Assembly (NCBI GenBank): GCA_965223415.1
Contig: OZ245002.1
Location: forward strand, 4,160,001-4,224,000
Source: Myxococcota bacterium
GTDB lineage: Bacteria > Myxococcota_A > UBA9160 > UBA6930
Length of the DNA: 64,000 bases
Direction: 5' to 3'
The notes under the pieces were generated by a model. It was not told the DNA's origin. It did not search any database and saw only the letters and a program-made list of their open reading frames with translations. Below are positions 5,499 to 32,637 of the stretch, piece after piece. Numbering within the stretch: position 1 is the first letter of the stretch; every line of letters starts with the position of its first letter. The translations under genes were made by a program, and so were the position numbers.

Positions 5499-6326
5499 AT
5501 GTCGACCGTGACCGCCGCGAGCCAGCGCGAACACCGCGTGACCACCCGCTCCCTCCAGCGCGCGAAGCGCCGGGGCGAGCCGTTCTCGATGCTCACCGCC
5601 TACGACGTCACCTTTTCCCGCATCTTCGACCAGGCGGGCATCGACGTCCTGCTCGTCGGGGATTCGGTGGGCAACACCACCCAGGGTCACGAGAACACGC
5701 TCCCGGTGACCCTCGACGAGATGATCTACCACACGCGGATGGTCGTCCGCGGCGCCTCCCGCGCGCTGGTCGTGGGCGACATGCCCTTCGGCTCCTACCA
5801 GGTCTCGCCGGAGGACGGCGTCCGCAGCGCCATCCGGCTGATGAAGGAGGGCGGCGCCCACGCGGTGAAGCTCGAAGGCGGCCGCCGGGTGAAGGAGACC
5901 CTGGCCCGCATCGCGGGCGCGGACATCCCGGTGATGGGCCACGTCGGCCTCACGCCCCAGTCGGTGCACGCCATGGGCGGCTACCGGGTGCAGGGCCGCG
6001 GCGAGAGCGGCCGGGATCGGGTGATCCAGGACGCCCTGGCGGTGGAGGCCGCCGGGGCCTTCGCCCTGGTGCTCGAGGGCGTGCCCGCGGACCTGGCCCG
6101 GGAGATCACCGCGACGGTCGGCATTCCGACCATCGGCATCGGCGCCGGCGTCGAGTGCGACGGCCAGGTGCTGGTGCTCCACGACCTGCTCGGGCTCTCG
6201 GACTGGACGCCCAGCTTCGCCAAGCAGTACGCCAACCTGGGCGCGGCCGCCTCCCAGGCCGCCCGGCAGTTCGCCGAGGAGGTGGCGCACCGCAAGTTCC
6301 CCGGCGACGAGCACTCCTACCGTTAG
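5499..6326 (+). CDS. panB: 3-methyl-2-oxobutanoate hydroxymethyltransferase
   Basis: MLTAYD, LLVGDS, DMPFGSY, AVKLEGG, GHVGLTPQ, GIGAG..CDGQVLV. Confidence 0.97.
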   Translation: MSTVTAASQREHRVTTRSLQRAKRRGEPFSMLTAYDVTFSRIFDQAGIDVLLVGDSVGNTTQGHENTLPVTLDEMIYHTRMVVRGASRALVVGDMPFGSYQVSPEDGVRSAIRLMKEGGAHAVKLEGGRRVKETLARIAGADIPVMGHVGLTPQSVHAMGGYRVQGRGESGRDRVIQDALAVEAAGAFALVLEGVPADLAREITATVGIPTIGIGAGVECDGQVLVLHDLLGLSDWTPSFAKQYANLGAAASQAARQFAEEVAHRKFPGDEHSYR

Positions 6327-6341
6327 ATACTCCCTTCGTCG

Positions 6342-7337
6342 TCAACCCTTCGTGGCGAAGAATTTCTCGCCAAGGAAGTCCTGGTCGTGGCGGAGCATGC
6401 CGTAGATGGCGTGGAGCAGCTTCCGCATGACGGCGACGAGTGCTTGCATCTTGGTTTTGCCCTTGGAGAGCAGCTTCTCGTAGAAGGCCTTCACGTTCGG
6501 TTCCCAGCGTGCAGCGACCATCGCAGGAAGAAAGAGTGCGCGGCGAAGGTGGGCGTTGCCGGTCTTGCTGATGCGAGCTGGCTTGTGCACAGAGGTGCCC
6601 GATTGAAACTGTCGGGGGTCGAGGCCCGCATGCGCGACCCATTGCCGGGTCGTCATGTCCTTGGGCAAGGTGCCTAGCTCGGCGAGCAACTGGATGCCGG
6701 CTGCGTCGGCGATACCCTTGATCGATGTGATGTGGCCGAAGTCTCTGGCGAGCTCGGGGCTCTGCTCGATCACCTTCAACGCTTGCTTGCGCAGCCGATC
6801 GATTCGCCCCTCCAGGAGCTCGATCAGTTCGCGGATGTCTTGCTTCACGAACTCACTGAGCTCCTCGCTCTGGTCGTTGGCATGGAGCCGGTTCTTCTCC
6901 TGCGTCACGGTCTTGCTCAGAGCCTCCACGCGGCGGGAGAGGGCCCGTACCTCCAGAATTCGGGGGTCCGGCGGAGTCCAGGCGGAAAACTCCATGCGCA
7001 TTCCGAACTCGAGAATCGTTTCCGCATCGAGCGCATCCGTCTTGGAGCGTTGAAGCGATGCCTTGGCGAACGCGGCAATGGCCCGCGGGTTCGCCACCAT
7101 CACCTGGGACGCCTTCGCACGGTGAAGCGCGAACGCGAGGTCGAGGCCGTACACCCCGGTCGATTCCAGGACGACGCGCGCCGTCGCATTCCCCTTCGTG
7201 GCCCACCGAATCAGCCTCTGGTGGCCCTTGGGATCGTTCGCAAAGACCAGCCCGCCCTCGCGAGTTCCGTTCCGGTCGATGGCGACGACGAGCTCCTTCG
7301 CCCCGACGTCCACGCCCACGTAATGACACTTCTTCAA
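6342..7337 (-). CDS. IS110 DEDD recombinase/transposase
   Basis: GVDVG (D), LESTG (E), KTDALDA (D,D), QSG Ser loop, SKTGN..LRRAL, AVMRKLL; TTG start with GGAGGAG RBS. Confidence 0.93.
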   Translation of the reverse strand: MKKCHYVGVDVGAKELVVAIDRNGTREGGLVFANDPKGHQRLIRWATKGNATARVVLESTGVYGLDLAFALHRAKASQVMVANPRAIAAFAKASLQRSKTDALDAETILEFGMRMEFSAWTPPDPRILEVRALSRRVEALSKTVTQEKNRLHANDQSEELSEFVKQDIRELIELLEGRIDRLRKQALKVIEQSPELARDFGHITSIKGIADAAGIQLLAELGTLPKDMTTRQWVAHAGLDPRQFQSGTSVHKPARISKTGNAHLRRALFLPAMVAARWEPNVKAFYEKLLSKGKTKMQALVAVMRKLLHAIYGMLRHDQDFLGEKFFATKG

Positions 7338-7394
7338 GGTCTCTCCTCCCCGTGATAAGCTGGGACCCGGGTCTCCCGACCCTGCACATTCACC

Positions 7395-7555
7395 TACGGA
7401 CCTTGTAGACGCAGGCTCTCGGGCCTCGGATACTCCACGGCATGGGTGACGAGGGCGGGAGGCCCATCTAACGGACAAGCTCTCTGGCTTCAGGCAGCGA
7501 CGGCCTTTCCCGGGAACCCATCTCGGAGTCTCACTCAGGCCCGAAGAGCCTGCTC
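7395..7555 (-). ncRNA. Predicted IS110 bridge RNA (ends approximate)
   Basis: Guides matching target (7492-7500, 7468-7474) and donor (7429-7436, 7402-7407), in the expected order, each pair flanking an internal hairpin. Confidence 0.85.
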
Positions 7556-7574
7556 AGAGGTACAAGGCGGCGGG

Positions 7575-8471
7575 GTGGAGATCGTACGCGACACCCGGGC
7601 GCTCCAGGCCCTGGCCGACGGCGCCCGCGCCGAAGGCCGGCGCATCGCGCTCGTGCCCACGATGGGTGCGCTGCACGCCGGCCACCTGGCGCTGGTGGAG
7701 GCCGCGCGGGAGCGGGCCGAGCGGGTGTGCGTCTCGATCTTCGTGAACCCCTCCCAGTTCAACGCCGCTGCCGACCTCGCCGCCTACCCGCGTAACTGGG
7801 AGGCCGACCTCGTCGCCTGCCGCGAGGCCGGGGTCGACTGGGTGTTCGCGCCGGAGCCCGAGGAGCTCTACCCCGATGGCTACCAGACCTGGGTGGATGT
7901 CGAGGAGCTCTCCCAGCCCCTGTGCGGCGCCGCGCGGCCGGGCCACTTCCGCGGGGTCGCCACCGTCGTCGCGAAGCTCTTCCTCGCCGCGAAGCCCCAC
8001 ACGGCGCTGTTCGGCGAGAAGGACTACCAGCAGCTCGCCCTGATCCGCCGGATGGCGCGGGATCTGGGCTTCGACGTCGAGGTGGCCGGCGTGGCCACCG
8101 CGCGCGAGGCGGACGGCCTCGCCCGGAGCAGCCGCAACGTCCACCTGGGTGCCGGCGAGGTGCGCCGACAGGCGACGGCCCTGGTGCGGGCGCTCGACGC
8201 CGCCGAGGCGGCGGTGCTGGCCGGCGAGGTGCGCGCCGAGGCCCTGGTCGGGATCGCCCGGGAGGAGATCGGCAAGGCGCCCCTGGCCGAGATCGACTAC
8301 GCCGAGCTGCGCGACCCGGACGACCTGAAGCTCCTGCGAGGCGAAGTGACCGGTCCCTCGCTCCTCGCCCTCGCCGTCTTCTTCCCTCGTGCCGCGGGGG
8401 ACGGTGAGACCGTACGACTCATCGACAACCGCGTTCTGCAAGCGCCGCGACCCCTGGAGGAACGGACGTGA
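7575..8471 (+). CDS. panC: Pantoate-beta-alanine ligase
   Basis: [50 protein letters not shown]. Confidence 0.97.
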
Positions 8472-15488: not shown

Positions 15489-18400
15489 CTAGGAGCCGGC
15501 GCCGAAGGCCGCCGGCGTCGGGAAGCTCCCCGGATCCGTGCAGCGCGCGCGCCAGCGGCGGCGGAGCGCCCTCATCTCCCGTCCGCCGACCCCGGCGCCC
15601 TTCTTCAGCGCCAGCTTGTCGGGCGCGGAGACGCCGGCGGCACCCACCACGCGCACGAAGCAGGCGTTGGCCTTCTGGGAGCTCCACTTGAAGCGCCCGG
15701 TACCGTCGGCCGTGGTCATCCCGAGGACCTGGTCGGTCTCCGCGTCGCGGATCTCGAGGGCCTCCCCCGCGCCGGCGTGCTGGCCGCCCACCACGAGGAT
15801 CCGGCCCAGTCGGCTTCCGCGCATGCGGAAGCGGTGGACGCCCTCCGCCGACAGCAGCATCGGGCTGGCCGGTCCGCACTGGGCCGGAGCGTTCGTCACG
15901 GCCATACGGGCGCTCAGCTGGACGCCGGTGCGCACCTGCACGTTGCAGGGTGCCTGGGCCGGCGCGAGGCACCGGAAGACCGGGCGCTTGCCCTTGCGGC
16001 GTCGGGAGTCCCTGACCATGCGGCACTGGCCCGTCTTGAAGGCGCCACCGCGGTTGGCCATGAGCGTTGCCAGCACGTTGCCGCTGTCCGCGTCGAGGAG
16101 CTCGACCGCCGCGCCGCCGGGGGCGCCGGAGCCGCGCACCGCCAGGTGACCGCCCCAGGTATCCCACCAGATCGCCTCGTCGATCCCGAAGGCGCCCGCC
16201 CCCCCCTGGATGGCCAGGTTCACGACCTCCGAGTCGGACATCGGGGGCACGCCGTCGTCGGTTACCGTGAACGTGGCGTCGTAGCTGCCCGTCTGGCCGG
16301 TTCCCGGAGTCCAGCTGAAGCCGGCCGTACCGTCGCCGTTGTCGGTGAGGGCCGCGCCGGCCGGCAGGTTCGTCGCCGCCAGCGCCAGCCCGTTGCCGTC
16401 CGGGTCCGCCGCCATCACGGTGAAGGCGAGGGTCTGCCCCTGGAGCACGGTGCGGTTGCCGATGGGCGTGAGGGTCGGCGGGTTGTTCACGACACCGATG
16501 CCGATGGTGATCGCTTCGTTGGCCGAGAGCGAGCCGTCGGAGACCGTGAAGGTCACCGGGTGGCTGCCCACGTCGCCGGCTCCCGGCGTCCAGGTGAAGC
16601 TGCCGGTGCCGTCGCCGTTGTCCGTGAAGGTGGCGCCCATGGGCACGCCCGTTGCGCTGCAGGTCACCGCGTCGCCGTCGACGTCGGTGCCGGTGACGGT
16701 GAAGCTCAGCAGCTGGTTCGTGTTGCCGGCCTTGTTGCCGATCGGGGCCAGGGTGGGCGGCCGGTTCACGTCGCCCACGGTGATCATCACCGCCTCCTGG
16801 TCCATGGCTGCCGGCGTGCCGTCGTCGGTCACGGAGACCGTCACGTTGCGGTTGCCCGCGTCGCCGAAGCCCGGCGTCCAGGCGAGGGTGCCGGTGCCGT
16901 CGCCGTTGTCCTGCAGGGCCATGCCCAGGGGCGCCCCGGCCAGGGCGATGGTGAGACCGTCGCCGTCCGGATCCGTGGCCTGCAGCGCGAGCTGGAGGAG
17001 CACGCCCTCGTTGACGACCTGGTTGCCGATCGGCGTGAGCACCGGGGGTCGGTTCACGTTGCCGACCGAGATGGAGATCGCCTCGGTCACCGCCTGCACC
17101 GGCGTCCCGTTGTCCGTGGCCGTGAAGCTCACCTGGTGGTTGCCGCCCTGGTTGAAGGCGGGCGTCCAGGCGAAGGCGCCGGTGCCGTCGCCGTTGTCGT
17201 TCCAGGTGGCGCCGGTCGGCAGGCCGGCCACGGTGAGGGCCAGGGCGTCGCCGTCCGGATCCGTCGCGGTGACGGTGAAGCTCAGGAGCTCGTTCTCGTT
17301 CACCGCGCGGTTGCCGATGGGCGTGAGCATCGGGGGCCGGTTCACGTTGCCGACGGCGATCTGGATCGTCTCGGCGTCACTGGCAGGCGGGCTGCCCGTG
17401 TCGGTGACGGTGAAGGTGACGTTGTAGTTGCCCGTCGATCCGAAGCCGGGCGTCCAGCTGAAGCTGGCCGTGCCGTCGCCGTTGTCGGTGAAGGCCGAGC
17501 CGGTGGGCGCACTCATGGCGGTGATCGCCAGGCCGTCGCCGTCCGGGTCGCTCGCTGAGAGGTCCAGGTTCAGGGCCTCACCCTCGTTCACGGCCTGGTT
17601 GCCGATCGCCGCGAGGACCGGCGGGCGGTTCACGTCGCCTACCGAGATCATGAAGGTCTCGGCGTCCGAGAGCATCGGGCTGCCGTCGTCGGTGGCGGTC
17701 ACGGTGACCGTGAAATTGCCGGCCTGGTTGTAGCCGGGGGTCCAGGCGAGCGTGCCGGTGCCGTTGCCCGCGTCGTTGAAGGTCGCGCCGGTCGGCAGGT
17801 TCGAGGCGGCCAGGCTGAGGCCGTCGCCGTCCGGATCCGAGGCGCTGACGTTGACCATGAGGTTCGTGCCCTCGTTCACGGCCTGGTTGCCGATCGCGCC
17901 GAGAACGGGGGCCTGGTTCGCGTTGAAGACCGTGATCGCCACCGTCTCCATGGCCGTGCCGGGCGTGGCCGCGTCGTCCGACACCGCGAAGGTGACGTTG
18001 TAGACGCCCGCCTGGCCCATGGCGGGGGTCCAGTCGAAGCTGCCGGTGCCGTCGCCGTTGTCCGTGAAGGTGGCGGTGCCCGGGAGCGGAGCGGCCGTGA
18101 GCGTCAACACGTCGCCGGCGTCCGGGTCGCTAGCGCTCACGCCGAAGCTGAGGCGCTGGCCCTCGGTGGTCATCTTGGCGCCGATCGCCGCCAGGGTGGG
18201 CGCGGTGTTGCTGCCGCCGCCCACGTTGCAGAAGAAGGCGAGGTTCCCGTTGTCCCAGTGCATCTTCGCCACCGGGTCCACGTCGCCGCCGTCCGGCAGG
18301 TCGGTCGGGAAGGAGCTGTTGTGGCACATCGTGCACTCGGTCAGCATGCCGTCGCGCATGTCCGCGTAAGGGGTGGCCGGTGCGCAGATGGCGTCGACGG

Positions 18401-18494
18401 CCGTCCCGAAGGAGTCGACCGCCGAGGCGGCGGTCGGCAGCAGGAGGGTGCCGGCCAGCAGCAGGCGGAGGAGGGCGGAGACGGGATGACGCAT
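15489..18494 (-). CDS. Secreted protein: N-terminal CxxCH heme motif plus seven Ig/cadherin-like repeats
   Basis: Signal peptide, CTMCH, seven ~95-aa repeats N(R/Q/T/N)(P/A)PxLxxIG...DxD...D(N/A)GxGTxxxxWTP. Confidence 0.8.
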   Translation of the reverse strand: MRHPVSALLRLLLAGTLLLPTAASAVDSFGTAVDAICAPATPYADMRDGMLTECTMCHNSSFPTDLPDGGDVDPVAKMHWDNGNLAFFCNVGGGSNTAPTLAAIGAKMTTEGQRLSFGVSASDPDAGDVLTLTAAPLPGTATFTDNGDGTGSFDWTPAMGQAGVYNVTFAVSDDAATPGTAMETVAITVFNANQAPVLGAIGNQAVNEGTNLMVNVSASDPDGDGLSLAASNLPTGATFNDAGNGTGTLAWTPGYNQAGNFTVTVTATDDGSPMLSDAETFMISVGDVNRPPVLAAIGNQAVNEGEALNLDLSASDPDGDGLAITAMSAPTGSAFTDNGDGTASFSWTPGFGSTGNYNVTFTVTDTGSPPASDAETIQIAVGNVNRPPMLTPIGNRAVNENELLSFTVTATDPDGDALALTVAGLPTGATWNDNGDGTGAFAWTPAFNQGGNHQVSFTATDNGTPVQAVTEAISISVGNVNRPPVLTPIGNQVVNEGVLLQLALQATDPDGDGLTIALAGAPLGMALQDNGDGTGTLAWTPGFGDAGNRNVTVSVTDDGTPAAMDQEAVMITVGDVNRPPTLAPIGNKAGNTNQLLSFTVTGTDVDGDAVTCSATGVPMGATFTDNGDGTGSFTWTPGAGDVGSHPVTFTVSDGSLSANEAITIGIGVVNNPPTLTPIGNRTVLQGQTLAFTVMAADPDGNGLALAATNLPAGAALTDNGDGTAGFSWTPGTGQTGSYDATFTVTDDGVPPMSDSEVVNLAIQGGAGAFGIDEAIWWDTWGGHLAVRGSGAPGGAAVELLDADSGNVLATLMANRGGAFKTGQCRMVRDSRRRKGKRPVFRCLAPAQAPCNVQVRTGVQLSARMAVTNAPAQCGPASPMLLSAEGVHRFRMRGSRLGRILVVGGQHAGAGEALEIRDAETDQVLGMTTADGTGRFKWSSQKANACFVRVVGAAGVSAPDKLALKKGAGVGGREMRALRRRWRARCTDPGSFPTPAAFGAGS

Positions 18495-18703
18495 TGGGAT
18501 CGGGGCCTCGTGCGGAGATGGCTCGCAGCCGACCGGTCGACGGACCTGTCCGCGAGTTTCACCCCTTCGGACGCGGCCAAACCGCCCCGGGTGAGCCAGC
18601 TCACGGCAGGGCGTGCGCAGGCGGGAGGCACCTGCGCACGGACGAAGGGGGGGGCGGGCGGCGGGGGCCGCTGTGTGCGGTTCCAGCGGGACTGGATCCC
18701 CGT

Positions 18704-18732
18704 TTGCCAAGGCCCGCCACCGTGCCTAGCCT
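18704..18732 (+). promoter_or_regulatory. Sigma70-type promoter of ssrA
   Basis: TTGCCA, 17-nt spacer, TAGCCT, ending 10 nt before the mature 5' end. Confidence 0.65.
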
Positions 18733-18742
18733 TCGTGGGCTT

Positions 18743-19111
18743 GGGGGCGATCGGCTTCGACGGGTGGTCGAAGGCGTTCGCTGCGTGTCGAGGAGGCTAC
18801 GTCCCTCGTAAATCCCGTGGCACTGTTGGTAGCTTCATACCTGCCGACGATAACTACGCTCTCGCTGCCTAGTTGACCCTGGGCTAGCGACGTCCGTCCC
18901 CGACGCCTTCTAGGGGGTCGCGGGCGTCATCAGAAGGCTCGGCCGTCGGCCGCTGGCAGGCCGCCACCGAACGGCGACATCGACGTTCTGCCAAGGAGCG
19001 CCTCCTCCCGTCCCCGCGACTGGGCGCCCCGAGATCGAGCGGGGACTACACACGTAGACGCGACCGTCGGACATCACGCGGACGCGGGTTCGATTCCCGC
19101 CGCCTCCACCA
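18743..19111 (+). ncRNA. ssrA: tmRNA; tag peptide (A)ADDNYALAA encoded at 18843-18872
   Basis: 5' GGGGGCGA...TTCGAC; 3' T-arm GGGTTCGATTCCC plus GCCGCCTCCACCA; acceptor stem with G3.U; YALAA-stop tag; smpB upstream. Confidence 0.97.
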
Positions 19112-20373
19112 ATAACTTCTCGATTCTGCTGCGGTTTTCTTGGCGCCTTCGCGCCCTGCACCCCGTCCGCGCCCCGTGGAGGGCGCAGGACTTCGAGCAG
19201 CGCACGGTCGGCCATGCCCGCGTAGCGCCGCGTCGAGCGCACGTCGGCGTGGCCGAGGAAGGTCTGGAGGGCGCGCTCCGAGACGCCGGGGGCCGCCGCA
19301 TCCGTGGCGAAGGTGTGCTTCGTGCCGGCGTAGAGACTCACCTTTACACCCACCCGCTTGCACGCCTCGATCCAGGTGCGGCGCAAGCTGGTCCCGGACC
19401 AACGGCCGCGAGGTCGGATCCCGCGGCCGCTCCAGGGCACGGTGAAGAGCGGCTCCGCGCGGAGGCGTCCCTCGCGTGCGACTTGCTTCGCGATCCACTC
19501 CTGAAGCACCTGCGGCACCGGCAGCCGCTTCACCTTGCCCGTCTTCGTCGAGCGGATCGGCGAGTCGAGGCGGTCACCCTTGCGTGCCTTGCTCACCGTG
19601 AGCCAGCCGTCGTGGTAGTCGGCCACGTCGAGAGCCACGGCCTCACCGGGCCGCAGGCCCATGAGTGCCATGGCGAGATAGATCCCGCGCCGGTCCTCGG
19701 GAATCGCGTCGAGGATCTCGTCCTGCGTGCGCGCCGAGAGCGGCGCGGGCGTCCGTTCCCGCCGCTTCGGCCAGGGGTACTCGCGCGGGAGCTCGCGGAT
19801 CTCCTCGCGCCGGTAGAGCCAGCCGAGGAACGAGCGGAACGCCGCCAGTATGTTCCAGCGCGTCTTCGGCGACAGCCCGCGATCCGCCAGCCAGTGCGAC
19901 CAATCCTCCAGCGCCGCATAGCTCACTTCGTGGATGCTGCGCCCGGCCCACCAGGAGAAGTGGCCGTTCGGCGCCAGGTAGCACTCGAGCTCGCGCACGT
20001 ACGTCGGGCTCCGGTCGCCGGCCTCCGCTTCCCGCTTCTTCACCGCCAGCCAGTGCACGGCGCGTGCGAGCACCAGGTTGATCGCGTGGCCGGAGGGCAG
20101 GAAGATTGCCATCGCCTCGTCGACCGTGGCGCCCTGGGCGATGCGCGAACGGATCAGCTCGAGCGCACGGCTCGCGCTCTCCTCGGTCCACGGCATCCGG
20201 CCGCCCGGCACGGGCTGCGACCAGATCCGACGCTCCCCGCCACCCGCCTTGGGAAGCTCGACGTAGATGCGGCCGTCCTTGTGCCGCCTGACCGCCCCGA
20301 AGTCGCCCATCTCCAGCCAGGCCATAGCATGCGCGGCAGCGGCCTGGGAAGGGAACTGGCACCGGTACCCCAT
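18910..20373 (-). CDS. Tyrosine recombinase/integrase (frame reads through att into antisense ssrA; start 20373 or 20310)
   Basis: GLRPGE (R), TKT (K), LYAGTKHTFAT, LGHAD, TRRY (catalytic Y); SAM-like domain (LSPKTRWNIL); adjacent to ssrA. Confidence 0.88.
   Translation of the reverse strand: MGYRCQFPSQAAAAHAMAWLEMGDFGAVRRHKDGRIYVELPKAGGGERRIWSQPVPGGRMPWTEESASRALELIRSRIAQGATVDEAMAIFLPSGHAINLVLARAVHWLAVKKREAEAGDRSPTYVRELECYLAPNGHFSWWAGRSIHEVSYAALEDWSHWLADRGLSPKTRWNILAAFRSFLGWLYRREEIRELPREYPWPKRRERTPAPLSARTQDEILDAIPEDRRGIYLAMALMGLRPGEAVALDVADYHDGWLTVSKARKGDRLDSPIRSTKTGKVKRLPVPQVLQEWIAKQVAREGRLRAEPLFTVPWSGRGIRPRGRWSGTSLRRTWIEACKRVGVKVSLYAGTKHTFATDAAAPGVSERALQTFLGHADVRSTRRYAGMADRALLEVLRPPRGADGVQGAKAPRKPQQNREVIGGGGGNRTRVRVMSDGRVYVCSPRSISGRPVAGTGGGAPWQNVDVAVRWRPASGRRPSLLMTPATP
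19161..19176 (+). repeat. Candidate integrase arm-type site (second copy at 25931-25946)
   Basis: ccccgtccgcgccccg, identical 43 nt inside attL and 49 nt inside attR1. Confidence 0.6.
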
Positions 20374-21068
20374 CGATCCTCCCTCGCTCGCAGCGAGAGG
20401 CGCGGAGAACCGGATCCGGGAGGGCGACGAGAATCCACAAGAGCAATCGCCGTGCCGAAGAAGCCGTAGATCCGAGGAGCCGTTCATCAGCTCTCCGGAG
20501 CCTCACCGGCTGCTCAGGGCCCGCTCGCTGGCACTCGCTGGTTCCCGCCGTCGCGCCAACTCCCGTTGTTGGGCGGCGCCGCATCCGCAGCTGTGCCGCC
20601 AGTTGGCGGGGCGCTTGTTCGCAGGGCTACGGAAGGGCGGAGTGCACCGCGACGGAATCACGTTCGCACGGCGACGAGAACAACTCGGTGCGATCGATCG
20701 GCTGCGATGGCAGCTCGCGGTTACGGCAAGATAAGAGGGGGCCGGTGGTCGCGGAACCCATTGGTTCTACGACGGATCTCGTGGGCGGTTCGCGTGGCTG
20801 CGGGCCGGTCCGGGCCGGTTCGGCGCGGAGTACTTCGGGCGTCATCAGTCACACGTCAGGTTCGCGAAGATCGGCTCTGTCGCCTTCCATTCGTGGTCAC
20901 GACACCCGGCCGCTCGACTGCCGCGGGCCATGACGAAGGCTGAGGAAGTCGTGACCGGCTGTTGGCGCCGGGGCGTGGACGGACGGGCTCTGTTTCCTCC
21001 CATGGAACGCCGAGGCGCGTTCTCCATGCGCCTGGCAACGGGCACGGAGCTGGCAATCGCTCGTCAGG

Positions 21069-22754
21069 ATGGGCTTCGACGCTCTTCCCGTTCCCCATGG
21101 GCATGGCGCCAGCGGACATGGCAAGAAGCACGGCTACGCGCGGCGCCGCCCCGAGGAGAGCGTCCTCTACGGTGTGGTCCAGACGGAGCTCGAGACTTTC
21201 CTGGCTCGCGCGCAGGCACGTGAACGCCCTGTGCCGCGGTTCGTCGAGCGCGAGCTTCGGGGATTTCTCCGCTGCGGCATCCTCGCCCACGGCTTCGCGC
21301 GCGTGCACTGCGACGGCTGCGGACTCGACCGGGTCGTCGCCTTCTCCTGCAAGGGCCGCGGCTTCTGTCCGTCCTGCGGAGGACGACGCATGGCCGACAC
21401 GGCGGCGCACCTGGTGGATCGGGTCCTGCCGGAGGTGCCCGTCCGGCAGTGGGTGCTCTCGCTGCCCTTCGCGCTCCGCTACCGCCTCGCCTACGACGCG
21501 CCGCTCACGAGCGCCGTGCTGGGCGTCTTCGTACGCACGGTGTTCGCTTCGCTACGGCGTCGAGCGCGCAAGCGGTGGGGCGTCGCCCGCGGCCAGTGCG
21601 GCGCGGTCACCTTCGTGCAGCGCTTCGGCGGCGCTCTCAACCTGAACGTCCACTTCCACTCCTTGCTGCTCGACGGTGCCTACGCGGCGGGACCGGACGG
21701 CGCCCTGCGCTTCCTTCCCCTCCCTCCGCCAGACGATGCCGAGGTCGAGCGGGTCGTGGCGCAGGTCGCCCGGCGTCTTCGAGGGCTCCTCGAGCGCCAA
21801 GGTCTCGGCCCCGAAGCGGACCTGGCCGATGTTGATCCCCTGGCCGAGGGCGAGCCTCTTCTGGCCCAGCTCTACGGCGCCTCCGTCGCCGGACGTATTG
21901 CCACGGGCCGCCGCGCGGGCAAGCGCGTCGTCCGCGTGGGAGACCGCATCGACCTCGAGGATCTGCCGGCGCTCGAGGGCGAGCGCTGCGCGAGCGTGAG
22001 CGGCGTGAGCCTCCACGCGAACGTGGCCGTCCCGGCTCGCGACCGCCGGCGTCTGGAGCGGCTGTGCCGCTATGTGGCACGCCCTCCGGTCGCGACCGAG
22101 CGACTCTCGCGGCTCGAGGATGGGCGGCTCCTCTACCGCCTCAAGCACCGCTGGCGCGACGGCACGACCCATGTCGTCTTCGAGCCGCAGGAGCTGGTCG
22201 AGAAGCTCGTGGCCCTGGTTCCCCCGCCCCGCGTCCACCTCGTGCGCTACCACGGGATCCTGGGCCCGTGTGCGGGCGCGCGGGACCGCGTCGTGCCGGG
22301 CTCGTCGACCCCAGAGGGGCGGGTCCGCCCGCCGCCGAGAAAGCCGGCCGTGGATCTCCCTGCGGCGACATCCAGCACGACGCCAGTCGAAGAGAAACGG
22401 CGGGATTCGGCTCCCGACCGCTGCAAGCCACTGGGCCAAGACGAGAACGGAGCGACACCGGCGCCTTCCGGTCCCCAGGAGCCCGCGTCCGCGCTTGGCG
22501 ATTCGACGCCCCGCCCTCGACGACTGGCCTGGGCCGAACTCTTGCGGCGCGTCTTCGCAGCCGACGTCCTCGAATGCCCGCGCTGCGGCGGACGCATGCG
22601 GCTGCTGGCCGCGATCCAGCCGCCCGACGCCACCGGCGCCATCCTCGACTCCCTCGAGCTGCCTAGCCGTGCCCCACCCACGGCTCCGGCCCTCCCCGAT
22701 CCGCGGGATGCCGAGGAGTGGACCGGCGACTTCCAAGCGACCCTCCGAGTCTGA
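21069..22754 (+). CDS. IS91/ISCR-family rolling-circle HUH transposase
   Basis: Zn-binding C..C...SCKGRGFCPSCG, RQWVLSLP, NVHFH (HUH), RLCRYVARP (single Tyr), RYHG, C-terminal CPRCGG. Confidence 0.92.
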   Translation: MGFDALPVPHGHGASGHGKKHGYARRRPEESVLYGVVQTELETFLARAQARERPVPRFVERELRGFLRCGILAHGFARVHCDGCGLDRVVAFSCKGRGFCPSCGGRRMADTAAHLVDRVLPEVPVRQWVLSLPFALRYRLAYDAPLTSAVLGVFVRTVFASLRRRARKRWGVARGQCGAVTFVQRFGGALNLNVHFHSLLLDGAYAAGPDGALRFLPLPPPDDAEVERVVAQVARRLRGLLERQGLGPEADLADVDPLAEGEPLLAQLYGASVAGRIATGRRAGKRVVRVGDRIDLEDLPALEGERCASVSGVSLHANVAVPARDRRRLERLCRYVARPPVATERLSRLEDGRLLYRLKHRWRDGTTHVVFEPQELVEKLVALVPPPRVHLVRYHGILGPCAGARDRVVPGSSTPEGRVRPPPRKPAVDLPAATSSTTPVEEKRRDSAPDRCKPLGQDENGATPAPSGPQEPASALGDSTPRPRRLAWAELLRRVFAADVLECPRCGGRMRLLAAIQPPDATGAILDSLELPSRAPPTAPALPDPRDAEEWTGDFQATLRV

Positions 22755-22891
22755 GCGCTGGGGCCGGCTCGGGACCGACGGGCCAAGCCGTTTCGACCGC
22801 GGCTGGGCTGGCCCGAGGGAGACGTCCGCCCGCAATTCGCAGCGCAAGCGCCGACGAACGGCGACCGGACAGCGCGACCCGCTTGAATGCC

Positions 22892-22983
22892 CCGCCTACG
22901 GTCTCGCTAGACCGAAATCCCCCGGGGAGTTGTCATTTTGGGGGTTATCGGACCTCGAACGCCCGCTTGTCCGGCCTATCCGC
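22892..22983 (+). repeat. oriIS-like terminus, copy 1 (92 bp)
   Basis: Downstream of the HUH transposase; hairpins; ends gcttgtccggcctatccgc, similar to ISCR oriIS ...TTCCTATACC; identical to 25018-25109. Confidence 0.75.
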
Positions 22984-23862
22984 GGGACCCAGTTGCTGGA
23001 GGGGGAGGGGCGCTGTCGCCGTATCACCTGCCCCTTCCATAGCTGGGCCTATGGCTTGGATGGCAACCTACTGGCAGCGCCCCATATGGAGGCGAGCAAG
23101 AGCTTCGATCGTGCTCAATTCGGCCTGCTGGAATTGCCGCTTGCGGAGCGTGCTGGCCTCCTCTTCTTGCATTTGGGGAGTAAGCCAGGCGACCTGGACG
23201 ATCAGCTTGGCGACTTCGCCACCCTGCATGCCCCCTGGCCGCTGCAGGATTTGGTCTCGACACGGCGCCGGAACCTCGAGGTCGACTGCAACTGGAAGGC
23301 CTTCCTGGAGGTCTTTAACGAGTACTATCACCTAAGGTACGTGCATCCCAAGACCATCGACGGCCTATATCAAGCCCCCGACTTACCCGATCAAACCTCT
23401 GGCAGCTATGCCAGCCAATTCGGCGAGACCAGCGGTACCGGCGCCTTGCTGCGCGAGCAGCAGGAGCACGCCCTGCCGGTGATGCCCCGCCTAGAGGGAC
23501 GCTGGAGCCGGGGTGTGCGCTATACTTGGCTCTTCCCCAACATGACCTTCGCCGCCGGCCGCGAAGCCCTTTGGATGTACGAGGCCTATCCCCTGGGGCC
23601 AGACCGCTGCCGGGTTACTCAGACCATTTGCTTTCCGCCGGAAACCATCGCGGCTACCGGATTTGAGGATCGCGCCAGTGCCTATTACCAGCGCCTCGAT
23701 GCGGCATTGGAAGAAGACATTGTGGTTCTGGAACGCCAGCAGCGCGGCCTGGCGTCCACGCACGCGCGTGCCGGCCCCTTTGCCGCCCGTCTGGAGCCCA
23801 GCGTTGCCGCCTTCGCCGCCTGGTACGCCCGCCAACTCCTCGAAACGCCAGACACTCCCTAG
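22984..23862 (+). pseudogene. 5'-truncated Rieske non-heme iron oxygenase alpha subunit (choline monooxygenase-like)
   Basis: Starts at RGTQLL, lacking the first CxH; retains CPFHSWAY, NWK...E.YH...VHP and EED. Confidence 0.82.
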
Positions 23863-24359
23863 CCCGGCATGAAGGGAATATCGGTGTCGTCCAGCGTGCA
23901 GCCGGCGGCGGTGAGCATGGCGTGCACTTGGCCGCGGTGGTGGGTTTGGTGATTGAACATGTGGGTGACGAGCAGCCACTTGGGCTTGGATACCTCGCGC
24001 CCAACGGCACCCGAAAACCAGGCAAAATCGCCTTCAAGCCAAGCGGGATCGAGGTTTTCCGCCCAGTCGATGATGACCTGGTCGAAGGCCGGCCGCTCGA
24101 CCATCAGCTCGGACCACTCGTAGTGATTGCCTGAATCGGGGATTCCGGATGCCTTTGGAGCCGGGATGTCGGCAAAACGGCTCATCCAGATCTGATCACC
24201 CCACAAAATATGGCTCAAGGTTGCGTGGATGGAGCCAAAGAAGGCACCGCGTGGTTGCTGGCGTTCCACCTCGTTCAAGCCGCCGGCGGCCCGGTAGTGG
24301 CTTTGGTTCTGCCAGCAGTTATAGGCGGCCATCGTCTTTACATAGTCGGTTGTAATCAC
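23859..24359 (-). CDS. DinB family protein
   Basis: YN.WQN, FFGSIHATLSH, HMFNHQTHHRGQVH. Confidence 0.88.
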   Translation of the reverse strand: MITTDYVKTMAAYNCWQNQSHYRAAGGLNEVERQQPRGAFFGSIHATLSHILWGDQIWMSRFADIPAPKASGIPDSGNHYEWSELMVERPAFDQVIIDWAENLDPAWLEGDFAWFSGAVGREVSKPKWLLVTHMFNHQTHHRGQVHAMLTAAGCTLDDTDIPFMPG

Positions 24360-24458
24360 AGTGGGTCTCCCTTCTGCGCAGTTTGCGCGACCGGCCACAC
24401 AATGCCATCGGGGCCCCGAAGGGCCCCGCGGATCGAACTGGTCTCTCTCGCAACGCCG

Positions 24459-25017
24459 CTATGAGACGTGATAGAGCGACTGCGCCGATACCATGGCGAA
24501 GAGCATGGGGATCGAGAGCAGGGTGTTGGTGCGCGAAAACAGCATCGCCGTGCGGGCGGCTGCCGCCTTGGCTGTCGCGTCAACCTCGACCATGCCCAGA
24601 GCCTTCTTCTGGTTGGGCCAAATCACGAACCAAACGTTGAACCACATGATCATGCCAAGCCACATGCCGATGCCAATAGAGGTATGACCAATCTCGCCGG
24701 AAGTGGCGCCCAGAGTAAGGGCGTCGACCAGATAGCCATTCATCATGGCCAGGATAAGGCCGGTGACGATGGTTGCCATGGCGCCCCAGCGGAACCACCA
24801 CAAGGCAGCCGGAGCAATCACCTTGCCAATCGCCGGTTTTTGGTCGTCAGGGATATTCGGCATGTTGGGAATCTGTACGAAATTGAAATACCACAAGAGA
24901 CCGATCCACATGACGCCGCTTAAGACATGCAGCCAGCGGAAGAAGAACTTGCCGAATTCGGCACCTGTGTATCCCCAGGCGAAGTAGATGATGAATAAGA
25001 TCAGCGCCAAGACAAAG
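24459..25017 (-). pseudogene. 5'-truncated PuuD-like (urate hydroxylase family) membrane protein
   Basis: RWLHVLSGVMWIGLLWYFNFVQ, WWFRW, NVWFVIWPNQKK, SRTNTLLSIPM; frame is cut upstream by the oriIS copy. Confidence 0.72.
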
Positions 25018-25109
25018 CCGCCTACGGTCTCGCTAGACCGAAATCCCCCGGGGAGTTGTCATTTTGGGGGTTATCGGACCTCGAACGCCCGCTTGTCCGG
25101 CCTATCCGC
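25018..25109 (+). repeat. oriIS-like terminus, copy 2, followed by terminal-motif stutter to ~25140
   Basis: Identical to 22892-22983; then cctatccgc, atccgc, ggatcacgcctatccg. Confidence 0.8.
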
Positions 25110-25211
25110 CCTATCCGCATCCGCGGATCACGCCTATCCGACCGCTTCGCGCTGTTGAGGGGGCGGAGGCACGACACACGGGCCCGACGGATTGCCTTCG
25201 GCCTCAGCTCC

Positions 25212-25613
25212 CTAGGGAGCGATGATCTCGAGCCCGGGGAAGTACGTGCGGTAACGCGTCGCATCCCGGGTAACCAGGATCAGTCCTGCGACCGCCGCAT
25301 GGGCGCCGATGTAGAAGTCGGGCAGGGGGGACCTCCGCGGGCCGCGCCGGCGCCGATATCGTACGAAGCACTTCCCGGCCAGGAAGGCCGCCTCCCAGGG
25401 CAGGGAAAGTCGGAGGAAGTCCTCCTCGGGAAGGGCGTCCTGGAGATCCTCGACCCGCTCGAACCGGATCGACACCTCGGCATAGATCAACGGGTTGATC
25501 GCGAGCGCAGAGCTCTCGGCGCACTCGGCGAGCGTCTCCCCGGACCACGCGGACCACTCCGGGTCCTCGGTCATGATGTCGAGCAGGACGTTGCTGTCGA
25601 CGAGGACGGTCAG
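25212..25613 (-). CDS. vapC: VapC/PIN-domain toxin (apparent CTG start)
   Basis: VLVDSNVLLD, INPLIYAEVS, LPDFYIGAHA, LVTRD. Confidence 0.88.
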   Translation of the reverse strand: MTVLVDSNVLLDIMTEDPEWSAWSGETLAECAESSALAINPLIYAEVSIRFERVEDLQDALPEEDFLRLSLPWEAAFLAGKCFVRYRRRRGPRRSPLPDFYIGAHAAVAGLILVTRDATRYRTYFPGLEIIAP

Positions 25614-25849
25614 CGACCGCCCCGGGTCAGCGCCAGGATCTCGTCCGTGGTCATTCGAACCGATCCGCGGCCGCGCAGTCGCTCGACGATGGACTTTCCG
25701 CGGCGCCCCGCACGGCCGGCGCGTCGGACCTTTCGCAGCCGGACGGCCTTGCCGACGATCTCGAACTCGACCTCGGTGTTGGGCAGCAGGCCGAGCTTCT
25801 CGCGGATCTCGACGGGGATGGTCACCTGGCCCTTGGTGGTGATCTTCAT
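25610..25849 (-). CDS. vapB: AbrB/MazE-like antitoxin
   Basis: MKITTKGQVTIPVEIREKLGL...VEF; stop overlaps the toxin start. Confidence 0.9.
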   Translation of the reverse strand: MKITTKGQVTIPVEIREKLGLLPNTEVEFEIVGKAVRLRKVRRAGRAGRRGKSIVERLRGRGSVRMTTDEILALTRGGR

Positions 25850-25850
25850 G

Positions 25851-25874
25851 GTATTACCTCGAGAAGTAATACTA
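25851..25874 (-). promoter_or_regulatory. vapBC operator palindrome overlapping a -10 element
   Basis: gtattac-N8-gtaatac; TAGTAT on the minus strand. Confidence 0.6.
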
Positions 25875-26085
25875 CAGGAGACCGGGTACGCGGGCACCGC
25901 CCGGGTGGCACCTCGTCGTCTTGTCCAGCGCCCCGTCCGCGCCCCGATCCCGGCTTGGAAGTGCCCGATTTCCCTGACTTCTTGCCTCCCTGCCGGCGGG
26001 TTCGATTCCCGCCGCCTCCACCAATAACTCCCCGGAATCGCCACGCTTCGCGAACCGCGATTCCGCCGTCCGCCCGGATGGCCAA

Positions 26086-26930
26086 TCATCCGAGGGCCTC
26101 TGAGCAGCAGAACCGCACCTTCTCTCCTGATCCGCATGGACAGGGCAAGTACGGCCCGATCCGGTTCTGGGCGCACTTCTCTTCGAGAATCCGCCGGAGA
26201 GTTTTCCACGGCCTTGTCGGCGTAGCGTACGTCGTTCCAGATGGCCGCTTGCGGAGGCCCAGTCTGAGGAGGCTTGGCGACGTACAAGCGGCTGAACTCG
26301 TCACGCGCCCGCTCCGACACGGCGGCGGGTACGGCCCGCGACAGCCCGCTGTTGACGGAGACGGCGACGTCGGCGGCTTCGCTCGCCTGCAGCCGACCGA
26401 GAACCTCCGGCCGGAGTTCGTCGGCAGCAGCCGTCCCTCGGAAAGCCCGTATCGCGTCGATGATCGCGGGCCCTGCTCCAGCGCCCAGATCCGCGGAGAA
26501 CCTCCCCGCGACGACATCTCCCGTGGCCGCTTCCGCCCATTCCTCCGCTGGTAGAGCTGCGAAGGCTGTCCCTGCAAGGAGGGCCTTCGCGAACCAAGGA
26601 CTCAAGCCGGGCTGACCCCAGCAAGTTGTGCAGCCGGTCGAGGGACCGGACTGGAGCGAACAGGCGCACAAAGCACACGAGGCCGCCGATCAGGTCGTGA
26701 ATCGCGCTCGTCTCTGGGTTGGGAAGCTCGGCGTTGAAGCGGGTGCCCGCTACCAGCTGGTTGGTGTTGCCCGATTCGCTCTGCAGGTCTGCCGTCGCGG
26801 AGGTTCTCCACGTGCCCGACGGATGGAGTTCAATCGGGTTGTTGGCGCGGGATGCGATCTCCTCGACAACCGAGATGGAGGTCCGATGATCCTTCAGCTT
26901 CTCCGGGGCGTACCGGATGACACGCACGGG
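26086..26930 (-). pseudogene. Frameshifted remnant with C-terminal SEC-C motif
   Basis: IGPYLPCPCGSGEKVRFCC; coding-like stretches split over three frames. Confidence 0.5.
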
Positions 26931-27089
26931 CGTACCGGTCGGCGACGAAGCACGAACGGGTGGCCGCGGAGATCGGAAACGGGATCGTGTTCAAGATCCT
27001 GGTCGGCTTCGCGCCGCAGCGGTTCCTGCGGCTCGATCCCGTGGACAGCCGGTAGAGCCTAGCGCGGCACCTTCGGATAGAGTGCCGGC

Positions 27090-28208
27090 ATGGCCGTCGA
27101 CCCTCCCGCGTCCGCCGCATGGCGCGAATTCTGCCGAGCGCTCGAGCGGGCGGGTGCGGTGCTCGAACGCGAACCGCTCGCGCGTGACCCGCTGTCGCTC
27201 GCCGAGGGCCATCGCCACTTGTTGCGGATGATCCGCCTCGGTTTCGAGTGCGTCTCGGAGTATGGCGACCCCGGGCACCCCCAGCTTTTCGAGATGGCGA
27301 GCGCGACCAAGCTCTCGGAGGGCGTCACGTCAGACGCGCGCTACCACCAGGCGTTCATCGATGGCCGCGCCCACCACGTGATCCGCGGCGACCGTGGGGA
27401 AGCCCCGCTCATCGAGATCGGGGCGTACGAGGGAAGGATGGGCTTGCATCCCTCGAACGCGTTGCTCGGCTGCCTGACCGAGGCCGAGCTGGTGGTCGAC
27501 GGCGACGGGCGCTTCGAGATCGCGCTCGGCCCCGAGGAACGGCCCGGCAACTGGTTGCGCACTGACGCACGCACGAAGTGCGTGTTCATCCGCGAGTACG
27601 CCCACGACTGGAGCCGGACGCGCGGGGCCCGGCTCGAACTCGTGCGCGCTGATGCGTCCCCGGGGCTGCGCCCACCGCTCACGCTCGAGGAGATCACCGA
27701 CGCGCTCGAGCGCACCGCACGCTTCGTGGAGACAGCGCCCGCCACGTGGGCCGATATCTCCGACTACTGGGCCGGCACCGCGAAGAACCGCATCGTTCCG
27801 CAAGAAGGGGCGTCGTCCGACACGGACATCGTCGTGCCGAGTGGGCATCGGTTTGCGTGCGGTTACTTCGAGCTCGAGCCCGACGAAGCGCTGGTCGTCC
27901 GCTTCGCGCCGCCCAGGGACACGGCGTACTGGGGGATCCACCTCGACAACTACTGGTACGAGCCACTCAGCTGGGAGGATGCGCGCTCGCAGCGCAACGA
28001 TCGCAGCGTGTGCTACGAGCCCGATGGGAGCGTCGTGCTGGTCGTCTCGTCGCAGTCGCCGGGCGAGGATGCGAACTGGCTGGATACGCAGTCCCACACC
28101 CAGGGCTCGATCGTCTTCCGCTGGTCGCGGAGCGAGGCGCCGTGTCCGGCGTTCGACTGTCGCGTCGTCCCCATCGATCGTTGGCGCGACGAAGGGGGAA
28201 GGGCATGA
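27090..28208 (+). CDS. DUF1214-like protein
   Basis: LAEGHRHLLR, D..Y..A.IDG...IRG.RG, PGNWL, YW...L.NYW.E.L, NWLDT..H..G...FRW. Confidence 0.72.
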   Translation: MAVDPPASAAWREFCRALERAGAVLEREPLARDPLSLAEGHRHLLRMIRLGFECVSEYGDPGHPQLFEMASATKLSEGVTSDARYHQAFIDGRAHHVIRGDRGEAPLIEIGAYEGRMGLHPSNALLGCLTEAELVVDGDGRFEIALGPEERPGNWLRTDARTKCVFIREYAHDWSRTRGARLELVRADASPGLRPPLTLEEITDALERTARFVETAPATWADISDYWAGTAKNRIVPQEGASSDTDIVVPSGHRFACGYFELEPDEALVVRFAPPRDTAYWGIHLDNYWYEPLSWEDARSQRNDRSVCYEPDGSVVLVVSSQSPGEDANWLDTQSHTQGSIVFRWSRSEAPCPAFDCRVVPIDRWRDEGGRA

Positions 28209-28723
28209 CGACCGCCTCTCCCGTGCCGCGGCGGGACCGCTTCGTCGTGGGAACCGGGCGATGTGGTTCGACGCTGCTGTCGAAGATGCTGGCGCGCCAT
28301 CCGGACGTGCTGAGCCTCTTCGAGTTCTTCTCCGGCATCGACCAATTCTTCCGTTTCCGCATCGACCCGGTGCCCGGCACGGAGCTCGCGCGGCGTCTCG
28401 AAGAAGATCACCCGATGCTGACGATGGTCCTGCGGCGCGGCTACGAGGTCCCGGAGGTCGCGTATCCTTTCGGTGCCGCGCAAGCCCGCTTGACCCCGGA
28501 CGATCCGATTCCGTGGACGCTCGCGATCGCCATCGCCCGCGTGTCCGACGATCCCGACGCGCTGTTCGCCGAGATGATCGCCCGCGCGTGTCGAGGGACG
28601 TCATCTCTTGCGCGCTAAGAGGACGGCTAGTTTTGCGCACCCCCCTGGGTTGATGTTCGGTTCTTCCTTCTTCTCTTCCGCTCTCCGAAGGAGAGCACGG
28701 CCGTCAGGCCGCCCTCTGGGGCC

Positions 28724-29524
28724 TCAACGCTGGGCGCTTTGCCCCGCGGCCTGCTCGAGCTCGCGGAGCCGGTAGCTCCGCCCCGAGATGTTGAGCACCT
28801 GGCTGTGGTGGAGGAGGCGATCGAGGATGGCGGTGGCCAGCACCTCGTCGCCCGCCAGCACCTCGGGCCAGTCGGCGATGCCCTTGTTCGTGGTGATCAG
28901 GATCGAGCCCCTCCCATAGCGGTAGGAGACGAGCCGGAAGAAGAGGCTCGCCTCCTGGCGCGTCATGGGCTCGAAGCCGACCTCGTCGATGACGAGGAGC
29001 GCCACGTTCATGTGCTTGCGCCGCCGCAGCCGTTGCGGGCTGATCTCGGCGTCGCGCTTGAGGGCCGCCAGCAGGTCCTCGAGGCGATGGAAGGCCACGG
29101 AGAAGCCGTTCTCCACGGCCCGCACCCCCAGGGCCACCGCCAGGTGGGTCTTGCCCACTCCCGGCGGACCCTGGATCAGCAGACTCTCCTTGGCCCGGAT
29201 CCACGCGCAGGTGCCCAGCGTCTCGATCCGGCTCCGCTCCACACTCGGCTGGAAGGCGAAGTCGAAGTTGCCGAGGGTCTGCCCCGTGGGAAGGCCCGAG
29301 AGACGGAGCGAGGTCTTCATCCTCCGCTCCTCGCGGTGCTGCAGCTCGGCCTCGAGCAGCAGGTCGAGGAAGCGGTGGGGCACGAGGTCGTCCTTGGTCG
29401 CTCGGGCCAGCTCCTCGCCGATGTGCTCGGCCGCGTGATGGAGGCCGAGGCGCACGAGCCGCTCGCGGGTCGGGTCGAGATCCACCTTGCCGCCCTTCTT
29501 GGGCACCGGGTTTCCCGCCGTCAT
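28724..29524 (-). CDS. istB: IS21 helper AAA+ ATPase
   Basis: GPPGVGKTHLA, LLVIDEVG, ITTNK, AILDRLLHH, G.SYR. Confidence 0.95.
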   Translation of the reverse strand: MTAGNPVPKKGGKVDLDPTRERLVRLGLHHAAEHIGEELARATKDDLVPHRFLDLLLEAELQHREERRMKTSLRLSGLPTGQTLGNFDFAFQPSVERSRIETLGTCAWIRAKESLLIQGPPGVGKTHLAVALGVRAVENGFSVAFHRLEDLLAALKRDAEISPQRLRRRKHMNVALLVIDEVGFEPMTRQEASLFFRLVSYRYGRGSILITTNKGIADWPEVLAGDEVLATAILDRLLHHSQVLNISGRSYRLRELEQAAGQSAQR

Positions 29525-32623: not shown

Positions 32624-32637
32624 ACGGGGGCACCTAG

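Follow-up and report, generated by a model that had tools for sequence, protein, structure and literature searches.

A probable bridge RNA fitted to its own insertion site and ends in an IS110-group element between panB and panC

The genes panB (5499-6326, plus strand) and panC (GTG start at 7575) lie on either side of an insertion in a 64,000-nucleotide (nt) stretch of a Myxococcota bacterium genome (assembly GCA_965223415.1, contig OZ245002.1, positions 4,160,001 to 4,224,000 of the forward strand), which we refer to as the window. The inserted DNA is an IS110-type element of 1,242 bp that runs on the minus strand from 7566 to 6325, with CT at both termini (Table 1). We conclude that it is very probably a structurally complete insertion sequence of the IS110 group, to which IS621 belongs, with a bridge RNA that fits both its own site and its own ends. 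The class and its mechanism are already known, having been published in 2024, and an NCBIfam model for 'RNA-guided transposase' exists; our understanding of the class is unchanged.

Boundaries and comparisons draw on a set of relatives found in one scan of species-representative genomes, which gave 80 loci at 45-83% identity and did not include the window's own genome. These loci span Myxococcota, 'Deltaproteobacteria', Acidobacteriota, Gemmatimonadota, Rhodothermales, methylotrophic Gammaproteobacteria, and others. The left boundary could be placed in 75 of the 80 (not in L001, L010, L024, L061, or L068), giving 56 different left ends when the window is counted. The termini of the window element align with those of 75 relatives whose flanks are unrelated, the conserved ends being CTTGTAT... 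and ...GAGTATCT. Because the ends are conserved while the flanks differ, the boundaries are fixed to the base. The long left end, the short right end (17 nt, with the CT at 6326-6325 as its last bases), a core dinucleotide at either end, and the lack of long terminal inverted repeats together make up the IS110-group layout. At 62.7%, the G+C content of the element is below that of the window (70.4%) and that of its flanks (about 72%).

The insertion site is compact. The left flank with the core reads CCGCCGCCT (7573-7565, minus strand), and the core with the right flank reads CTAACGG (6326-6320). The TAG stop codon of panB (6324-6326, plus strand) includes the core dinucleotide and is regenerated by its duplication. 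In the uninterrupted locus, about 8 nt would lie between the panB stop and the start of panC; the element, which is antisense to the pan operon, separates the two (window 6320-6326 and 7567-7577). The insertion thus splits the panB-panC junction; panC and panD may have lost their coupling to panB, and their expression may be affected.

The preliminary description, made from the sequence alone, had called the recombinase intact, and our analysis agrees. The reading frame is open and contains both IS110 domains (Pfam PF01548, E = 3.8e-26, residues 7-153; PF02371, E = 1.5e-20, residues 203-287), and it exceeds the cut-off of the NCBIfam equivalog NF033542, 'IS110 family RNA-guided transposase' (218.1 bits against 140). 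Over residues 3-320, the protein aligns with the ISCro4 recombinase (PDB 9t56; E = 4.2e-49) and with IS621 (E = 2e-46). Residues D10, E58, D101, D104, and S257 match, in this order, the catalytic D, E, D, D, and S of IS621, for which excerpts of PMC11208158 give D102 and S241 as catalytic; across 20 relatives (alignment A1), each is either invariant or conserved to at least 90%.

Identity to an annotated IS621-family gene is about 36%. A protein search returned thousands of relatives, of which the nearest are 87% identical and lie nearly all on short metagenome contigs; the cluster of the window protein comprises one sequence on one contig. Close plasmid-borne named relatives above 50% identity were not found, and the best plasmid-borne match was at 50%. 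Given these values, it is plausible that this ortholog, with its distinct guide set, is undescribed, as had been proposed.

Table 1. Coordinates of the element, its host flanks, and its predicted functional parts (window positions)
Feature	Positions	Strand	Details
Whole element	6325..7566	minus	CT core dinucleotide at 7566-7565 and 6326-6325
Left end, 229 nt, non-coding, predicted to encode the bridge RNA	7338..7566	minus	alignable over 56 unique left ends with recombinases 45-100% identical
Recombinase gene, 331 aa	6342..7337	minus	TTG start; GGAGG ribosome-binding site upstream
Left target flank, host DNA	7567..7573	minus	short gap ahead of panC GTG start (7575)
Right target flank, host DNA	6320..6324	minus	last panB codons
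Left target guide TCGCTGCCT	7492..7500	minus	9/9 with bottom strand of 7573-7565: 7 Watson-Crick, 2 rU.dG
Right target guide CCGTTAG (7474-7468), with AT at 7467-7466 in handshake position	7466..7474	minus	7/7 against 6326-6320
Left donor guide GGAGTATC	7429..7436	minus	8/8 identical to element right end 6333-6326
Right donor guide TACAAG (7407-7402), with GT at 7401-7400 in handshake position	7400..7407	minus	6/6 against 7566-7561
Putative -35 hexamer TTGACG	6340..6345	minus	right end; overlaps TGA stop (6344-6342)
-10-like hexamer TACCTC	7557..7562	minus	left end
Target-binding arm	7461..7505	minus	stem 7505-7502/7464-7461; inner hairpin 7490-7477
Donor-binding arm	7374..7460	minus	P3 7460-7452/7383-7374; P4 7448-7438/7399-7391; inner hairpin 7426-7413
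P1 closing helix, 5' strand CCCGGG	7509..7514	minus	pairs with 7366-7371
P1 closing helix, 3' strand CCCGGG	7366..7371	minus	pairs with 7509-7514
Match to covariance model R1	7363..7517	minus	156.9 bits, E = 6.4e-45, full model length
5' hairpin, 7-bp stem, UUC loop	7536..7552	minus	-9.1 kcal/mol (ViennaRNA)

Guide strings, predicted RNA fold, and circle junction

The left end contains four strings that correspond to the two halves of the target and to the two ends of the element. We read them by the strand rules for guide pairing given in PMC11208160 and PMC11208158 (both in excerpt), and all strings that had been listed for this locus were recovered on the minus strand where they had been placed. 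The left target guide TCGCTGCCT equals the left target save for two C>T changes, which are potential rU.dG wobbles on the bottom strand, and CCGTTAG is the exact reverse complement of the right target. On the donor side, TACAAG is the reverse complement of the left end, CTTGTA. Both loops in the window thus follow the target-loop and donor-loop pairing rule of the IS110 group. The short hairpins that had been noted between the guide halves are also present (AAGC/GCTT at 7490-7477 and AGGC/GCCT at 7426-7413). The element had been described as programmed against its own insertion site; the matches bear this out, but the wording claimed too much, as any IS110 copy that arrives by its own mechanism must show them.

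Guide strings of this length can arise in unrelated sequence, and we compared them with 20,000 dinucleotide-preserving shuffles of left-end positions 13-229. Single guide strings recurred in 3.9%, 1.5%, 0.7%, and 0.9% of shuffles, and at least two occurred together in 0.125%. All four occurred together in none of the 20,000, and the product of the four frequencies is 4e-8. The guide strings of the window also occupy the same alignment columns as the guides of 55 other left ends.

Covariation among the left ends predicts an RNA that folds as two arms. We aligned 46 of these 56 sequences with MAFFT, omitting ten that were near-duplicate or defective (L006, L008, L013, L018, L039, L048, L055, L063, L069, L075), and read a 31-pair structure off the alignment. 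Across these 46 left ends, 92.3% of cells can pair, compared with 24-56% when the partners are slid by one to three columns. Changes on both sides were seen in 18 of the 31 pairs (111 cells), and none of 500 shuffles attained these values. In the target arm, all four pairs of helix 1 changed on both sides, with 99.5% of cells paired, as did two of the four pairs of helix 2. The donor arm is built from a stem of 9 bp containing a single bulge, followed by a 4+5-bp stem whose bulge is 2 nt and by the inner hairpin; the pairs of its helices 3-7 that changed on both sides numbered 5/9, 2/2, 1/1, 3/6, and 1/5. RNAalifold, run on 22 left ends, recovered the target arm and P3 and mispaired the interior of the donor arm, and its result was replaced by the structure read off the alignment.

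The two arms abut without a linker, and a further helix, P1, closes both, giving a predicted three-way junction. P1 could not be counted on the MAFFT alignment because its palindromic CCGG strands align in two registers. In a duplex test with permuted partners, cognate P1 strands had a mean of -15.0 kcal/mol against -10.1 kcal/mol for non-cognate strands, and no permutation out of 500 was as low. We also built a covariance model (R1) from 42 relatives, excluding the window and L002-L004 and leaving out P1. It matched the window left end over its full length (Table 1), the next-best score in the window was 9.9 bits, and the window RNA contained only two non-standard pairs under the model. The two checks that had been proposed for the fold, a bi-lobed structure and a search by covariance model, therefore both came out in favour of a bridge RNA, the first of them despite a contrary single-sequence fold.

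Upstream of the modelled region lies a 5' hairpin that had been described as UUCG-capped. The hairpin itself stands, while the canonical C(UUCG)G cap does not, as ViennaRNA gives a UUC loop. It is present in L002 and L004 and absent in L003, and no signal for it as a family feature was seen across 48 of the 56 left ends (mean z = -0.24; eight were skipped as too long).

Abutting the two ends of the element, as in a circle, places 13 nt of the right end and 4 nt of the left end, and so 17 nt in all, between TTGACG and TACCTC. This is the geometry that had been predicted for the junction, including an imperfect -10 hexamer. Across 43 distinct junctions, the -35 bases T, T, G, A, and C are kept in 43, 40, 41, 38, and 36, respectively, and the spacing to a -10 of the form TAT(C/A)T(T/C) is 17 nt in all 43. 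The first -10 position is T in 42 of these junctions and the second is A in all of them. TACCTC is common to the window and L002-L004, and to judge from these sequences it would be a weaker hexamer but a trait of the clade, not decay in the window. While the element is integrated, ACGATC occupies the -35 position; circle formation should therefore be needed for expression, in keeping with the description of the family in PMC11208160 (in excerpt).

Following the concept of handshake bases from PMC11208158 (in excerpt), the AT after the right target guide complements the donor AT at 6328-6327, and this AU/AT match is found in 73 of 73 loci, an agreement without any variation that proves nothing. 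The GT that follows the right donor guide is able to form G:C and U.G pairs with the target GC at 7568-7567. Among relatives, the first base of this donor-loop handshake and target position 7 form a pair in 39 of 46 cases, the background rate being 73%, which is a weak signal.

Guides and targets among the relatives

If the first loop reads the target, guides should follow flanks from one relative to the next, and this is the pattern we observed. The 56 left ends carry 43 different target-guide sets, and the donor loop is near-uniform, with GGAGTATC in 47 of the 56. A variable first loop with a conserved second loop is also the published pattern (PMC11208160, in excerpt). Left target guides paired with their own flanks at a mean of 7.60 of 9 positions, against 5.48 of 9 for non-cognate flanks (65 combinations), and right target guides at 6.61 against 4.65 of 9 (49 combinations). 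On the right side, the five non-core positions adjoining the core were paired in 73-100% of cognate cases, compared with 30-40% of non-cognate ones. Own-flank matches were found despite quite different targets in L020, L038, L078, L064, L076, and a 16-copy Methylophagaceae set. A further 27 loci carry window-like guides; there, the match was 6/7 or better in 24 of 24 right sides and 7/9 or better in 18 of 27 left sides. The check on copies elsewhere that had been suggested for this element thus finds, at the loci of relatives, sites that fit their own guides, with cognate pairing above non-cognate on both sides.

Donor guides, where they vary, do so together with the ends of their elements. 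Such covariation was seen for GGAT (L015, L021, L026), GAAT (L032, L058), and GCAT (L064, L075), and donor guides also change with an AT core in L059 and L065. A different departure from the common core was observed in L005, L006, L009, and L016, where the left junction has AT and the right junction CT, the left target guide has AU and the right target guide AG, and unoccupied sites in the same arrays carry AT. From these junctions, guides, and sites we conclude that the target core there differs from the donor core and that each junction keeps the top-strand core.

Several relatives showed further variation in copy number and in the left end. The Methylophagaceae record OZ252593 (L039-L056) has sixteen copies on one chromosome, at the foot of REP-like palindromes. 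Its left guides come in two variants, ...CGACCT and ...CCAACCT, and the second variant is carried by two copies, both inserted at CCAAC sites, which to judge from the sequences would be natural retargeting inside one genome. Part of the donor arm is deleted in L039. In L017 (1431-2000), L018 (1586-2000), L023, L025, L028, L029, L034, and L036, the left ends are 100-350 nt longer; the extra sequence lies between the -10 and the bridge RNA and has TTTTCCACAG / CTGTGGGAAA inverted repeats, and in L017 and L018 the first ~30 bases of the left end are repeated internally. L030, L031, and L060, on short contigs binned as Methanovorans or Methanosarcinaceae, have RNA and ends nearly identical to those of Methylophaga and Methyloprofundus elements. 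These archaeal-bin copies may reflect a binning error or inter-domain transfer.

The sites used by the closest relatives resemble integron attC sites. Of 33 loci with a right flank of the form (C/A)(T/C)AAC(G/A), 20 have a GTT-type box 56-178 nt downstream, where we counted a locus as attC-like if the GTT-box arm pairs with the insertion-adjoining arm at -25 kcal/mol or better. The layout of those 20 loci is that of an integron attC, and none of 39 loci of other target classes shows it. Flanks of L006, L009, L003, L007, and others contain further unoccupied copies of the 12-nt target motif, on the same strand and a few hundred bases apart; L006 (505-4760) has five. The motif arrays, together with the attC-like occupied sites, lead us to the view that the closest relatives of the window element live in integron cassette arrays. 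At the window insertion site itself no attC structure was found, panB coding sequence lying on one side and the panC start on the other.

Comparison, mechanism, and alternative explanations

The window element shares the architecture of IS621 from Escherichia coli (PMC11208160, PMC11208158, both in excerpt), as the preliminary description had recognized from the guide order, the CT core, and the junction geometry. Both have a DEDD+Ser recombinase with the same two domains, a long left end and a very short right end, and a CT core at both ends. Both place, in order, a left target guide, a hairpin, and a right target guide before a left donor guide, a hairpin, and a right donor guide, under the same strand rule, with a variable first loop and a conserved second loop. 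The putative junction promoter of the window element would have its -35 in the right end and its -10 in the left end, as in IS621. Complementarity to the donor in the two bases that follow the right target guide is likewise seen in both. The differences lie in the protein, with the low identity given above, and in the guides and ends, which are different. In the window element, moreover, the arms abut without a linker and there is a covarying closing helix, whereas IS621 has a 5' stem-loop, two arms, and an ~11-nt linker (PMC11208158, in excerpt). We found no mention of a closing helix for IS621 in the excerpts of PMC11208160 and PMC11208158. The right target guide is 7 nt in the window element compared with 4 paired bases in the IS621 structure (PMC11208158, in excerpt), and the hosts are GC-rich uncultured lineages, unlike that of IS621. 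The ISCro4 recombinase is the best solved-structure match and a distant orthologue, the likeness being one of the protein.

Two other groups of IS110-family elements share parts of this picture. The IS1111-attC group (ISKpn4, ISPst6; PMC11187229, in excerpt) consists of RNA-guided DEDD elements that enter one end of attC, like the close relatives of the window element. They differ in that their guide RNA lies downstream, in a long right end, and in having subterminal inverted repeats, whereas the RNA of the window element lies upstream and the window copy itself is outside attC. According to excerpts of PMC11208160, the IS1111 group is defined by a guide RNA in a long right end and by subterminal inverted repeats of 7-17 bp; the 17-nt right end and the RNA in the left end rule out membership for the window element. 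ISPpu9, ISPpu10, and other REP-targeting IS110 elements resemble the distant clade members at REP-like palindromes in OZ252593. They have other guides, and the window element does not target REP sequences.

These parallels suggest how the element would move. By analogy with the family, it would leave the chromosome as a circle, and its joined ends, with the hexamer spacing found here, may act as a promoter. That promoter would transcribe a bridge RNA of ~185 nt, probably with the recombinase mRNA behind it. Covariation predicts that the RNA folds into two arms and the helix that closes them, each arm being a stem whose internal loop surrounds a small hairpin. The first loop would read the target, as the pairing potential in the window and the covariation in relatives indicate, and the second loop would likewise read the element's own joined ends, with which it can pair. 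The DEDD+Ser recombinase would then, on the model of IS621 structures, cut after the CT core and exchange strands. The window copy lies in a 14-nt site, between the stop of panB and the start of panC, to which its target loop is fitted, and its closest relatives enter integron attC sites with nearly the same guides.

Several observations weigh against this interpretation. The left target guide requires two wobbles, the pairing of the right donor guide spans 6 nt only, and the base that follows the left donor guide, C7428, mismatches the second core base, T. The window TACCTC shares only T and A with TATAAT, and its third position is C, as in 4 of 43 junctions, where 39 have T. The single-sequence minimum-energy fold of the left end is not two-armed (-96.8 kcal/mol, against -82.7 kcal/mol with the family structure enforced, a cost of 14 kcal/mol in ViennaRNA), and with a z-score of -1.1 it does no better than shuffles. 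A search of 6200-7700 against Rfam 15, at E up to 10, matched no family, although Rfam 15 may hold no bridge-RNA model. Among relatives, left-side fits are poor in L011 (4/9), L015 (5/9), several Rhodothermales copies (5-6/9), and L026. Finally, no second copy, empty site, or circle junction was seen within the window.

Chance and regulation offer two other accounts of the matches. Chance similarity in GC-rich sequence would be favoured by how often each string alone recurs in shuffles (0.7-3.9%) and by the high left score of non-cognate pairs, which is high because the targets are GC-rich and related. It fails to account for the four strings occurring together, as they did in no shuffle, or for their alignment with the guides of the 55 other left ends, and we give it practically no credence. 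The left end could instead be merely a leader or regulatory region, or a set of protein-binding DNA sites, in which case the end matches would be subterminal repeats and the flank matches a by-product. The conservation of the left donor string in 47 of 56 left ends would, taken by itself, fit a protein-binding site equally well, and the minimum-energy fold lacks the arms. Changes on both sides in 18 of 31 pairs, however, show selection on an RNA fold, the 43 target-side sets track flanks by the IS621 strand rule, and in four variant groups the donor strings have altered along with the ends. We therefore consider this account very improbable, if slightly less so than chance.

A further alternative bears on present activity only and leaves the identity of the element untouched. 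The copy may be complete but stranded, having entered a chance look-alike of the attC target with a weakened junction promoter, and so be immobile in this host. One copy is visible, the window holds no other good target (the best other match to the 14-nt target has 2 mismatches), the third -10 position has the rarer C, the site is not an attC whereas 20 of 33 loci of the same target class are attC-like, and the protein cluster is a single sequence on one contig. Against this, the catalytic residues are all present in an open frame, the RNA has only two non-standard pairs and a score of 157 bits, and TACCTC is shared with L002-L004, which makes it a trait of the clade and not decay of this copy. 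On balance we put this forward tentatively, as somewhat less likely than not.

The only published attC targeting that we came across is that of IS1111-type elements, among them ISKpn4 and ISPst6 (PMC11187229, in excerpt), in a literature search that was not exhaustive. The window element might belong to an undescribed IS110-type lineage with an upstream guide RNA, a closed and linker-free three-way junction, and the inverse-core end of attC as its home target. Besides the IS1111-attC elements, gene-cassette arrays would on this view have another RNA-guided parasite in this lineage, independent of the first, and the window copy would be a natural off-array insertion. We regard this as possible but would not yet favour it. 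If the off-array interpretation is true, a 14-nt match without attC structure suffices for insertion; the attC link, if new, would mean that IS110-type elements also colonise integron cassette arrays. The natural bridge recombinases whose guides can be read gain a probable member here, from a GC-rich lineage distant from IS621. With 43 target-guide sets carried by a single conserved scaffold, the relatives supply a natural reprogramming series, which helps to learn where the scaffold tolerates change and to build orthogonal bridge systems.

Other features of the window

Outside the element, the window has other signs of mobile DNA. A tmRNA gene at 18743-19111 was the sole match when the whole window was searched against Rfam 15 at the gathering score, and a tyrosine recombinase frame lies at 18910-20487 on the minus strand. 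Beyond the tmRNA gene are transposase genes of the ISCR/IS91 (21069-22754), IS21 (29521-30807), and IS1380 (32747-34114) types. The region 18743-34114 looks like a genomic island integrated at ssrA. A 1,073-aa frame at 15489-18710 contains tandem-95 repeats and has a partial match to a myxosortase-dependent M36 metallopeptidase, which hints at a Myxococcota host.

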